Of a DNA stretch of 64,000 bases, positions 42,551 to 47,795 are shown piece by piece. The position numbers and the translations under genes were made by a program. The notes below the pieces were generated by a model. The model had not been told where the DNA came from, made no database searches, and worked only from the letters and a program-made list of their open reading frames with translations. Numbering within the stretch: position 1 is the stretch's first letter; the number at the start of each line of letters is the position of its first letter. The stretch covers positions 23,057-87,056 of the forward strand of contig CAZSVP010000001.1 of assembly GCA_964610335.1 (NCBI GenBank). The letters run 5' to 3'. This DNA comes from an uncultured Candidatus Saccharibacteria bacterium (GTDB lineage: Bacteria > Patescibacteriota > Saccharimonadia > CAILAD01 > BJGX01).

Positions 42551-43714
42551 TCAATGCTCACGATCTTGTATGTGAGATTTGTACCGAGCATTGGCATCGC
42601 GAGCTGCGTCGCCCATAAGTTCAGCAATGCTACGCCTGTGAACATCGGCTAGTTCTTCGGCACCGTGTTGTCTGGCAAGAGAGTACTTTGGAGGTACCGG
42701 GAACCACATGTTTAGCTCCATAACTCTCCAACGCTGGCCATCCCACGCAGCGTCTACTGCCCCATGCAAATGGTTTACTTCTGCCCTGGTTAGTATGTCA
42801 TTGGCTATTGTGGTTGCCATACTTTCCAATTCAGGTGGCAAGTGTTGCTGAATATCAAGCAAAAGCCAATCGTCGTCTTCAGTATCTCTAGTGCGTACTG
42901 TTTGGTCACCCTTGGGCTTAAATAGCCTCGCATAAGGTATGATCAACTTCTTATCACCCCAGTACAGCATCAGTCGAACTTCCTTGGGGTCATGTTTGTG
43001 TGCCTCATAATCTTGCTTGCAGCTTGATATTACTGCATTGGCTATTTCACTAGGGAAGGGTTGTTTTGTATCAATCAACTCTTGCAACAAGTAGCCGTGT
43101 TCGCGATTGAGATTCAAATCAATCTGGCCATCGGCACTCAACAAATGTGTTGTCCCGTCTTGTTGTACCTCTACCTTGTACTTGTTGTCGTCCAGCAAAT
43201 CTTGTTTGGGTACTATAAGCCGACCTCGGCTATCCTCAGACTTAACAGGTTTTAATACCACTGAGTCAGTACCAATATCTTGCAACTGCTTTTTTAACTT
43301 GTCAGGCTCGACGACCAAAGTAAGTGGCTGTAAATCACCTATAAACTCATAAGCCTTGTCTTTCTCGTCAAGTTCTCTTACCTTAGCTGCATTTACAACA
43401 CTTGGCCCAAACTGCTCAACCTCTGGTGCAATGTCACGTCCGTAGGTACGAATCGAAGTTGCCCCTACCGGCATCTCTTGATCCGCCGGGCTGGTTTTGA
43501 CATGCAAGCTATCACCATCTCTTTCAATATTGACGGCATACGGCACTACCATCCCTGACTCCATATCAAACTGTTCGTTGCCACGTACTACAAAGACTTC
43601 TACCCCTTGGCCATGAAGTTCCTCAATAACTCTACGATAGCCCTCACCACTCAAAGTCTTGTCGCTACCATAACCTTCACGAAAGTACATCAAGGATTTA
43701 TCATTGGTTTCCAT
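42551..43714 (-). CDS. hypothetical protein, possibly a divergent ATP-grasp-fold enzyme
   Basis: 387 aa. The C-terminal half has ATP-grasp-like segments (…KEVRLMLYWGDKKLIIPYARLF…, …HGAVDAAWDGQRWRVMELNMWFPVP…) that resemble the RimK DLRVxVVGxxVV / [20 protein letters not shown] regions. Weak. Confidence 0.3.
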   Translation of the reverse strand: METNDKSLMYFREGYGSDKTLSGEGYRRVIEELHGQGVEVFVVRGNEQFDMESGMVVPYAVNIERDGDSLHVKTSPADQEMPVGATSIRTYGRDIAPEVEQFGPSVVNAAKVRELDEKDKAYEFIGDLQPLTLVVEPDKLKKQLQDIGTDSVVLKPVKSEDSRGRLIVPKQDLLDDNKYKVEVQQDGTTHLLSADGQIDLNLNREHGYLLQELIDTKQPFPSEIANAVISSCKQDYEAHKHDPKEVRLMLYWGDKKLIIPYARLFKPKGDQTVRTRDTEDDDWLLLDIQQHLPPELESMATTIANDILTRAEVNHLHGAVDAAWDGQRWRVMELNMWFPVPPKYSLARQHGAEELADVHRRSIAELMGDAARDANARYKSHIQDREH

Positions 43715-43757
43715 ACCAACAATTGTAACTTAAATGGCTATAAATTAGTAATGCTTA

Positions 43758-44663
43758 CTAGGCGCCGATACGATCTTTACGGCGTTTGCCAAGAGCCTTG
43801 TCAACGACATAGTCAATGATCTCACCAGCTATGTCTTCACCCGTTTGCTGTTCAATGCCTTGCAGGCCAGGGCTGGAGTTTACCTCTAGCACCAGTGGTC
43901 CTTTTTGTGAGCGAATAATGTCAACTCCTGCTATGTTAAGCCCTAGCGTTCGAGCTGCCTTGATCGCCACATTGGCTTCTTTCTTGGTAAGTTCTGCTGG
44001 TTGGGCCTTACCACCGCGATGTAGGTTGCTACGAAAATCACCTTCAGCTCCCTTGCGAAGCATAGCACCTACAACTCGATCCCCCACAACTATTACTCTC
44101 AAATCTGCTCCGTTGGCTTCCTCAATAAATTCTTGGATTAATATGTTGGCACCTAGCCCATAAAATGCATCGATTACTGACTTGGCAGCTTTCTTTGTTT
44201 CGGCCAGAACCACACCAATACCATGAGTACCTTCTAATAGTTTAATAATCACAGGTGTGCCACCAACCATATCAAGTAGCTCCTCGGTGTATTCACCTTC
44301 ACGAGCAAAGACTGTCTTGGGAATATTTACTCCAGAACGAGCAAGTATCTGCATGCTACGTAGCTTGTCGCGACTGCGTACCAAGGCCAGTGAGCTAACA
44401 GAACAATACTTACGCATCATCTCAAACTGCCTGATAACCGCACTACCATAAGAAGTGATGGATTGACCAATTCGAGGAATTACTATGTCTACATCGGCTA
44501 GTGACTCGCCTTCAAATACGATGTTAGGTTTGTTGGACTCAATGTCCATATAGCATTTTGCATGATTCACTACCAACGCCTCATGGCCTCGTTTTTCACA
44601 AGCTTCTACAAGTCGCATAGTAGTATAGTTTTTGGGGCCTCTTGAGAGGATAGCAATTTTCAT
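43758..44663 (-). CDS. rimK: RimK-family alpha-L-glutamate ligase (ATP-grasp)
   Basis: [18 protein letters not shown]…[19 protein letters not shown]…[44 protein letters not shown]…[26 protein letters not shown]. Confidence 0.85.
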
Positions 44664-46932: not shown

Positions 46933-46937
46933 ACAAA

Positions 46938-47795
46938 CTATCCAAATCTTTTCTTAAGCTCTACCACTACTTCTTCAGCAACATTTACTCCTGTCATAGC
47001 TTGGAAACCATTGTCTCCGTCCCACTCTGGTGCAGAGTTAATCTCTAAGAAAAAGAATGCACCTGTCGACTTGTCTTGTATCACATCAACTCCACACAAT
47101 TTGTACCCAATATTGTTAGCCATTCGCACCGCTATATTACTAACCTCTCGTACAACCTCAGGGTCTGTCTCATGCTCTGAACTTCCTCCTTGAGAAATGT
47201 TGTTTAGATAGTGTCCTTTGCGAGCAATGCGCTTCATCACACCCAAAGCCCGCCCCTCAAACACAATAATGCGCCAATCACCGTCGTTAGGGATAAAGTT
47301 TTGGAATACCATGTCTGAAATGATTGGCTTTATTTCCTTTAGTTGAATGGCTGATTTTACTAGCACAATACCCTTGCCCTGCGCACCATAATTTGGTTTG
47401 GCTATAAACGGATAATGCAGCATATTGGCTTCAATTGCTGCCTTTAATTCTTTAAGTAGATGGAACCGATAAGTAGCTATATGTGGAACATGTTTGTCGT
47501 GTTCTGCCACCATTTGCTGTACAAATTTGTACGCCACAAATGGTCGCTGCAATACTGCGTCATTGATAACATACTTGTCTTTGAGAATCTCACCAACCAC
47601 AGCTCGCTCCGATCTAATATCCAATTTGGATGCACGCCAAAGCACAACATCACCAAATTGCTCAACATCCGCTACAATTGTATTTGGATTATGCAGGTGA
47701 TGCACTTGAGCCTCAACATTGTGTTTCTTACAAGCATCAATTAGCTGTTGAACATGCCAATTACTTATTGATTTTGAAACAATAGAAAACTTCAC
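46938..47795 (-). CDS. ATP-grasp family ligase (RimK-like, paralog of the N-terminal domain of 44668..46932)
   Basis: …HYPFIAKPNYGAQGKGIVLVKS…GDWRIIVFEGRALGVMKRIARKGHYLNNISQGG…CGVDVIQDKSTGAFFFLEINSAPEW…. Confidence 0.7.
   Translation of the reverse strand: MKFSIVSKSISNWHVQQLIDACKKHNVEAQVHHLHNPNTIVADVEQFGDVVLWRASKLDIRSERAVVGEILKDKYVINDAVLQRPFVAYKFVQQMVAEHDKHVPHIATYRFHLLKELKAAIEANMLHYPFIAKPNYGAQGKGIVLVKSAIQLKEIKPIISDMVFQNFIPNDGDWRIIVFEGRALGVMKRIARKGHYLNNISQGGSSEHETDPEVVREVSNIAVRMANNIGYKLCGVDVIQDKSTGAFFFLEINSAPEWDGDNGFQAMTGVNVAEEVVVELKKRFG

Follow-up and report, generated by a model that had tools for sequence, protein, structure and literature searches.

A Rim/Rlo-type ATP-grasp module with a DUF3541-like toroid partner in Saccharibacteria and other CPR bacteria: a candidate system for writing and trimming a peptide tail or polymer

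Introduction

What might a bacterium with a reduced genome do with four successive genes for ATP-grasp enzymes, one of them joined to an aspartic protease? The question is raised by a stretch of 64,000 nucleotides (the window in what follows) from an uncultured Candidatus Saccharibacteria bacterium (assembly GCA_964610335.1, contig CAZSVP010000001.1, positions 23,057 to 87,056 of the forward strand), a member of the Candidate Phyla Radiation (CPR; also called Patescibacteria). Four co-directional open reading frames (ORFs) lie there on the minus strand, span 47795..42551, and each encodes an ATP-grasp fold (ORF1 to ORF4, Table 1), as a first-pass annotation made from the sequence without database searches had proposed. 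To follow up that proposal a hidden Markov model (HMM) was built for each component, and every ORF of the window and of 87 related loci (given L numbers below) was scanned.

It is proposed here that the four genes belong to a Rim/Rlo-type module for the synthesis and trimming of a peptide tail or polymer, expanded in Saccharibacteria and other CPR, a reading that we hold to be somewhat likelier than its denial. Domain identities, conserved catalytic sets, an obligatory genomic partnership accompanied by fusions, and the degeneracy of one ligase domain are the observations that carry it; functional statements reaching beyond domain identity are drawn from the published biochemistry of RimK and RimB, that is, ligation of poly-α-Glu, its trimming and the stimulation of RimK (PMC11957791), and from the logic of the rlo operon (PMC12239564).

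A canonical RimK and a RimB-like protease domain

Among the four ORFs only ORF3 passes the curated RimK HMM cut-offs, with 381 bits against 331 for NF007764 (S6--L-glutamate ligase) and 260 bits against 143 for TIGR00768 (rimK_fam), and this supports the canonical RimK named in the first-pass annotation; in Pfam it scores 229 bits for the RimK domain and 129 bits for Rimk_N. The protein is 58% identical to the Pseudomonas RimK 7qyr over 287 ungapped residues (E 4e-106) and about equally close to the RimK of E. coli. Its catalytic set is complete (K100, K141, D187, R189, R203, R211, N213, D248, E260 and N262), and six of the seven residues that contact poly-Glu, as defined in the RimK structure (PMC10092738), are retained (S7, R8, R64, S68, R189 and N262), the seventh, S14, being replaced by Thr. 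An ungapped identity of 58% between a CPR bacterium and a proteobacterium is strikingly high, and suggests either very strong constraint on the protein or horizontal transfer of rimK/rimB, which has been proposed for other phyla (PMC11957791).

The retropepsin/RimB-like domain that had been recognized at the C-terminal end of the 754-residue ORF2 is likewise recovered, since residues 619-750 match PF05618 ('Zn_protease') with 57.3 bits, above the gathering cut-off of 27, and the PDB entry 2pma matches the same domain (E 4.6e-4). The catalytic motif V-D640-S-G-A and a motif of the GR[RN] type, LLGRRAL, can be read in the sequence; D-T/S-G is the catalytic motif of RimB, where the Asp is D31 (PMC11957791). 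Against NF052261 (RimB) the domain reaches 57 bits and fails the cut-off of 200, and its score for the RloA3 family is nearly equal (55.7 bits), so that these scores do not separate the subfamilies. Lying within a cytoplasmic fusion, the protease domain has no signal peptide.

A separate ligase lineage with one degenerate copy

ORF1 and the N-terminal domain of ORF2 (ORF2-N) are recognized by the Pfam RimK domain (77 bits for ORF1; 69 bits for residues 115-277 of ORF2) and fall under both curated cut-offs, with 100 and 104 bits, respectively, for TIGR00768 and 37 and 49 bits for NF007764. The distinct RimK-like subfamily that had been described is upheld by these scores, and its motifs, of the type IAKPNYGxx[27 protein letters not shown], are present as they had been quoted. 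Both domains retain the equivalents of K100, K141, D187, R189, R203, N213, D248 and E260. The position of R211, which in RimK belongs to the FRSN motif, is occupied by Leu in ORF1 and by Val in ORF2 (NNISQGG motif), and most of the poly-Glu contact positions deviate from RimK as well. Judged from these residues, the two domains represent a ligase lineage separate from RimK, in which the catalytic residues are strictly conserved across about 70 RimK-like domains; since Arg211 and most poly-Glu contacts are absent, the lineage may add a different residue.

The two copies in the window are not equivalent. In ORF1 the N262 equivalent is present and all catalytic motifs are complete, whereas ORF2-N reads E252-I-G254 instead of E-x-N, which places Gly at the position of the Mg-binding Asn equivalent to N262 (N254G), with the further changes of GKG to GKN and of CGVD to ASID. 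The Mg-binding Asn is kept in essentially all other ligase domains surveyed; E-[IV]-G is confined to 3 of the 37 fused domains, those in L001, L008 and the window, and these three loci are also the only ones in which the extra stand-alone paralogue of 285 residues (ORF1) was found. Of 44 columns with a conservation of 90% or more among 35 further fused domains, ten are changed in ORF2-N and two in ORF1. Nonsynonymous divergence (dN) between the window and L001 is highest in ORF2-N (0.32), followed by ORF4 (0.24) and the central domain of ORF2 (0.19), and is slower in ORF1 and the protease domain (0.12 each) and in RimK (0.07); dN was compared alone, and not as dN/dS, because synonymous sites are saturated. 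A neighbour-joining tree places ORF1 alongside the N-terminal domains that belong to other fusions (46-48% identity) and ORF2-N on a long branch. We infer that the ligase domain was duplicated and that the fused copy decayed into a scaffold while catalysis passed to ORF1, which makes ORF1 the predicted working copy and ORF2-N a predicted pseudo-ligase or docking domain. The view that tandem ligases denote an expanded peptide-ligation or tail-remodelling system can be maintained as a general idea, but not as a simple multiplication of ligases, given one degenerate copy and one intact duplicate.

ORF4 gives no HMM match. Its predicted structure matches ATP-grasp enzymes only, the catalytic Lys, Glu, Asp and E-x-N are retained, and the family is narrow. 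On this structural prediction and the intact residues ORF4 can be assigned to the ATP-grasp superfamily, in keeping with the suspicion that a divergent fourth ligase closes the cluster.

The central domain of ORF2 is a conserved helical partner

The region between the ligase and the protease of ORF2 had been taken for an insert of 350 residues in a ligase-protease fusion, and this description has to be replaced. A profile of residues ~290-612 (about 325 residues) retrieves stand-alone proteins of about 310 residues, and because the region exists as a protein of its own in relatives it is an autonomous conserved domain rather than an insert or a linker; it is encoded by a separate gene in most relatives, and ORF2 is a fusion of three partners. 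The AlphaFold model of the domain is all-helical (mean predicted local distance difference test score, pLDDT, 93; predicted template modelling score, pTM, 0.92) and a (α/α)6 toroid is predicted. Identity to solved toroids is 4-11%, and a Foldseek search against the PDB gave nothing significant, as did a comparison of the toroid profile with PDB sequences, which yielded no match; tblastn of a toroid homologue against plasmids was equally negative. The closest family is PF12060 (DUF3541, gathering score 28.2 bits), for which a match at E<=1 is obtained with 16 of the 23 members of the toroid family (best E 5.5e-9), two homologues, P0005 (31.7 bits) and P0009 (33.3 bits), exceeding the gathering score; the central domain of the window, taken alone, gives no DUF3541 match and reaches no Pfam threshold. 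No paper mentioning DUF3541 was found in the searchable literature.

Over 82 distinct toroid sequences, H309, R313, R367, D421, S429, N434, Y487, T490, H491, Y500, D530, K532, E534, E587, H588, R589 and N590 are at least 98% conserved, and these roughly 17 invariant polar residues suggest an active site or a specific pocket for a charged ligand. The same predicted fold class contains LanC-like cyclases, the glycoside hydrolases GH15, GH88 and GH105, AGE epimerases and terpene cyclases, and the fold by itself does not identify the chemistry of this domain. A LanC-like function was considered and rejected, the conserved zinc-binding Cys pair of the Cys-Cys-His LanC site being absent.

Distribution and architectures of the module

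Scanned over one genome per species, the toroid was found in 104 species genomes, nearly all of them labelled CPR/Patescibacteria and belonging to Saccharibacteria, Moraniibacteriota, Parcubacteria, Gracilibacteria, Dojkabacteria and Altimarinota. Eleven metagenome-assembled genomes that carry a ligase-toroid fusion are labelled Bdellovibrionales/Pseudomonadales (L012, L014, L021, L024, L028, L034, L037, L041, L050, L070 and L080); their loci are Moraniibacteriota-like, which leaves two readings, unreliable labels or a module whose range extends beyond CPR.

Three arrangements can be distinguished. In type A, found in Saccharimonadales, the genes are unfused, in the order RimK (leftward), RimB (leftward), toroid (rightward) and RimK-like ligase (leftward), often at the same position between dnaJ and comEC as in the window; the RimB and RimK genes are neighbours read in one direction, and in L004 and L006, the two loci checked for this, the stop codon of one overlaps the start codon of the other. 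Four type A loci (L042, L061, L067 and L076) fuse RimB with RimK in proteins of 440-488 residues, the one of 440 residues ending at a contig edge. Type B is the triple fusion of RimK-like ligase, toroid and RimB (754-773 residues) followed by RimK, and occurs in the window and 11 other loci. In type C a double fusion of RimK-like ligase and toroid of about 600 residues stands beside 7TM_transglut (seven-transmembrane) and ATPgrasp_ST/retropepsin-like proteins and further weak ATP-grasp genes, an RloABC-like set; this type is met in CPR phyla beyond Saccharibacteria, for example Moraniibacteriota and Parcubacteria.

The partnership was counted in the 55 loci whose toroid has flanks of 3.5 kb or more on each side. 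Where the toroid stands alone (31 loci) it is accompanied by RimK in 27, RimB in 27, the RimK-like ligase in 24, homologues of the small membrane protein encoded upstream of ORF1 in 20, and 7TM_transglut in 2. All nine triple-fusion loci have RimK, RimB and the RimK-like ligase, with the membrane protein in four and 7TM_transglut in none. The 15 double-fusion loci all contain the RimK-like ligase, and 7TM_transglut is present in 13, RimK and RimB in one each, and the membrane protein in none. The ligase-toroid pair thus plugs into either a Rim-type or a Rlo-type core. Some 30 related Saccharibacteria carry the ligase, the toroid and RimB as separate genes next to RimK. Since ligase, toroid and RimB are separate neighbours in most related Saccharibacteria, ORF2 is a Rosetta-stone fusion of three partners, and neighbours that are separate in relatives and fused here are expected to act together and probably touch physically. 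The cluster had been called unexpected in a genome-reduced organism, a remark that must be softened, the module being conserved in the lineage and often found at the dnaJ...comEC position. By its own terms the annotation would have been refuted by a common conserved rimK operon of known function; the conservation in related lineages is real, but the function is not a known one.

Two observations concern individual loci. In the type C loci L002 (9973-13761) and L003 (3230-7018), genes for a class A penicillin-binding protein and a sugar-nucleotidyltransferase follow directly after the cluster, a neighbourhood that hints at a cell-envelope context. In the Gracilibacteria locus L079 (7242-8705) the ligase and toroid matches fall in pieces of about 100 residues under genetic code 11, which is not evidence of a pseudogene, because UGA is probably a sense codon in that lineage.

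The companion membrane protein

The protein encoded upstream of ORF1 has about five hydrophobic segments, counted by eye, and ends in a KKHRRKKK tail; a C-terminal tail rich in K, R and H recurs across its family. The gene is beyond the coordinates that the first-pass annotation gave for the cluster, and yet belongs to the module. In 33 loci a homologue of this family (165 residues) lies inside the module locus. In the window, L001, L008, L009 and L010 the gene is placed upstream of the ligase; the type A loci that were inspected, L026, L039, L046 and L059 among them, have it directly downstream of RimK. No Pfam family matches the protein, and the idea that it is a cryptic 7TM_transglut was rejected (hhalign probability 5.6%). 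As 7TM_transglut is present in 22 other CPR loci with the same ligase-toroid pair, the Rim and Rlo flavours of the module each include a polytopic membrane protein; the place of the small protein in its gene set would parallel that of the 7TM protein of the Rlo-like versions, although the two are unrelated.

Relation to known systems

Several systems combining an ATP-grasp ligase with a retropepsin have been described. With the RimK-RimB (RimABK) system of Pseudomonas and E. coli the locus shares a canonical RimK adjoining a RimB-type retropepsin with D-[ST]-G; it differs in that the protease is the C-terminal domain of a 754-residue protein, no RimA (EAL) protein is present, and two to three ATP-grasp genes, the DUF3541-like toroid and a small membrane protein are added. 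RimBK hybrids are known from Desulfotalea psychrophila (DP2392), Flavobacteriales and Rhodobacterales (Little et al. 2025), and have in common with ORF2 a retropepsin and a RimK-superfamily ligase in one polypeptide. In the window, however, the order is reversed (ligase, toroid, protease), a toroid of 325 residues intervenes, the fused ligase is of the RimK-like lineage and is degenerate, and RimK is a separate gene; the true RimBK architecture, an N-terminal RimB joined to RimK, is absent from the window and is that of the four type A fusions mentioned above. RloABC of Pseudomonas aeruginosa consists of the secreted retropepsin RloA, the 7TM inactive transglutaminase RloB and the ATP-grasp RloC, and shares with the window the logic of an ATP-grasp enzyme, a retropepsin and a polytopic membrane protein; by contrast, the window has a canonical RimK, its protease is fused to cytoplasmic domains without a signal peptide, and none of the proteins scanned, ORF1 to ORF4 and the membrane protein upstream of them, matched PF14402 (7TM_transglut).

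RimK, RimB, the RimBK hybrids and RloABC are therefore already described. The DUF3541-like toroid as a conserved partner, its RimK-like ligase lineage, the reversed-order triple fusion, the pseudo-ligase domain with its compensating paralogue, the companion membrane protein and the CPR-wide presence are not described in the searchable literature, in which no paper names both RimK and Saccharibacteria.

Proposed mechanism and alternative explanations

In the proposed mechanism RimK would polymerise α-linked Glu with ATP, either onto the C-terminus of a protein or as a free chain; by default the candidate for its target would be ribosomal protein S6, the one modified in E. coli and Pseudomonas. 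ORF1 and ORF4 would perform additional ATP-dependent ligations at that chain or acceptor, with an acceptor or donor preference that may differ from that of RimK. Two copies of a retropepsin domain have to pair before the two-Asp active site exists; the dimer would cleave the acidic chain and, as in Pseudomonas, may modulate RimK. The invariant His/Arg/Lys/Asp/Glu set of the toroid, presumed to line a pocket, would bind or chemically process the chain. RimK-family enzymes are oligomers, and ORF2-N, read as a pseudo-enzyme, may dock ORF1 and so tether ligase, toroid and protease in one particle, which the membrane protein would localise; the conservation of that protein suggests that the particle acts on the cytoplasmic side of the membrane.

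Several observations weigh against this picture. Searches with phmmer and jackhmmer recovered no rpsF, the gene for S6, from the window or the 87 related loci, and an exact-protein look-up past both window edges recovered none either. N254G suggests, and does not prove, that ORF2-N is inactive, and the window and L001 still share 61% identity over it. The model of ORF4 is of moderate quality (pLDDT 62) and its hhalign alignment to RimK is weak (probability 11%). Finally, the membrane protein is tied to the module by gene position only, and a promoter-like site separates the copy in the window from ORF1.

One alternative account would restrict the locus to ribosome modification, with S6 glutamylated by RimK and trimmed by RimB, and with the toroid and the RimK-like proteins acting as regulators of RimK in the place of RimA rather than as enzymes on the product. 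It draws on the score of ORF3 above the S6--L-glutamate ligase cut-off and its retained poly-Glu contacts, on the presence of the RimB domain with D-S-G, and on the accessory regulators that occur in Pseudomonas Rim operons. However, the strict catalytic residues of the RimK-like domains and of ORF4 point to real enzymes rather than regulators, the toroid has its own set of invariant polar residues, the membrane protein is conserved in the module, and in 14 of the 15 double-fusion loci the ligase-toroid pair accompanies Rlo-type genes without a canonical RimK; we regard the account as unlikely. In another account, an assembly line independent of the ribosome and comparable to RloABC would produce a peptide or poly-amino acid that is free or bound to the envelope, and that is either based on poly-α-glutamate or short and defined, each of three active ligases adding a block, the protease sizing or maturing the product, the toroid modifying or transferring it, and the membrane protein exporting or anchoring it. 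The three to four ATP-grasp genes per locus are consistent with this, as are the membrane protein in each flavour (the 165-residue family in 33 loci, 7TM_transglut in 22), the RloB/RloC/RloA-like genes that accompany the pair in other CPR phyla, the stimulation by RimB of free poly-α-Glu synthesis by RimK, and the rlo mutant phenotypes, which concern the envelope and osmotic stress (PMC12239564). Yet the cluster of the window includes no transporter, signal peptide or carrier protein, its canonical RimK is very close to S6-modifying enzymes, and the link of the membrane protein is positional, so that this explanation is possible but doubtful.

It is very improbable that the extra ligases glutamylate a cofactor, as MptN and CofF do, or load an amino-group carrier protein in the manner of LysX/ArgX. 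An identity of ORF1 or ORF2 with MptN, CofF or LysX was rejected on the curated cut-offs (350 and 276), which their scores miss by far; a LysW-type carrier or small precursor peptide was sought in the cluster and none was found, the gap between ORF4 and comEC holding only a tRNA-Lys, nor are LysY/Z/J/K-type genes in or beside it. Such pathways would also leave a retropepsin endopeptidase with no role, and the invariable partners are RimK/RimB or Rlo-type genes.

Organization of the locus

The intergenic gaps within the cluster are 5, 4 and 43 nucleotides. A GGAGG Shine-Dalgarno sequence lies 6 nucleotides ahead of the GTG start codon of ORF1, and the promoter-like site upstream is the best consensus match of the region, with 11 of 12 positions and an extended -10 element. 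Beyond ORF4 the hairpin that follows tRNA-Lys is the likely end of the transcription unit, if its sequence is a guide.

Table 1. Features of the ATP-grasp cluster and its immediate surroundings (positions in the window)
Feature	Position	Strand	Length	Description
Membrane protein	47863..48366	-	167 aa	Polytopic; companion of the module by gene position
Promoter-like site	47831..47859	-		TTGGCA-17-(TG)TATAAT; consensus match only
ORF1	46938..47795	-	285 aa	Stand-alone RimK-like ATP-grasp ligase, catalytic motifs complete
ORF2, whole	44668..46932	-	754 aa	Three-domain fusion
ORF2 residues 1-285 (ORF2-N)	46078..46932	-		Degenerate RimK-like ATP-grasp domain
ORF2 residues ~290-612	45097..46065	-		DUF3541-like all-helical domain, predicted (α/α)6 toroid
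ORF2 residues 619-754	44671..45078	-		RimB-like retropepsin (aspartic endopeptidase) domain
ORF3	43758..44663	-	301 aa	Canonical RimK (α-L-glutamate ligase)
ORF4	42551..43714	-	387 aa	Highly divergent ATP-grasp enzyme
tRNA-Lys(UUU)	42401-42477	-		CCA end encoded; in the 226-nt gap between ORF4 and comEC
Terminator-like hairpin and T-run	42379..42393	-		Past tRNA-Lys; consensus match only

The tRNA-Lys(UUU) may share a transcript with the ligase operon or terminate it. Upstream the cluster is flanked by dnaK, a gene with an NYN domain, dnaJ and the small membrane protein, and downstream by tRNA-Lys, comEC, yebC and ruvCAB. The NYN-domain gene (a predicted RNase, 49353-49985, minus strand) is placed between dnaK and dnaJ in the chaperone operon, and the same arrangement is seen in L001. 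Elsewhere in the window, an ORF of 1173 residues between ftsH and a murJ-like gene (58312-61833, minus strand), also present in L088, has no Pfam family on record. Positions 12001-14000 have a GC content of 0.546, compared with 0.40-0.49 in the rest of the window, and yielded no match to rRNA or to any further Rfam family. A group of five tRNA genes (Pro, Lys-CUU, His, Arg-UCU and Gly-UCC) lies at 24167-24883 on the minus strand, and a divergent tRNA-Arg(UCG) lies nearby at 25637-25712 on the plus strand.

Significance

RimK/RimB and RloABC have been characterised recently, and their physiological products and targets are partly unclear. About 100 related genomes, together with this locus, show that both have in CPR one obligatory pair of partners not described before, namely a RimK-like ligase with a DUF3541-like toroid; Rim and Rlo systems are linked in this way, and DUF3541 gains its first functional context. 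The natural fusions (ligase with toroid, toroid with protease, protease with RimK) amount to a ready-made interaction map, the pseudo-ligase domain with its compensating paralogue makes the locus a natural experiment, and the module offers concrete and cheap biochemical tests. CPR genomes are about 1 Mb in size, and the retention of a module of 5-6 kb in them implies an important role.

A bolder proposal, which we consider rather unlikely, is that the toroid is a new enzyme acting on the products of ATP-grasp ligases, within a CPR-wide and ribosome-independent pathway that comprises three ligases, a sizing protease and a membrane protein. Were this true, the product of the pathway would be a defined peptide or poly-amino acid of the envelope or of the host-interaction surface of these episymbiotic bacteria, and RimK/RimB and RloABC would each descend, in reduced form, from a single ancestral peptide-polymer machine.

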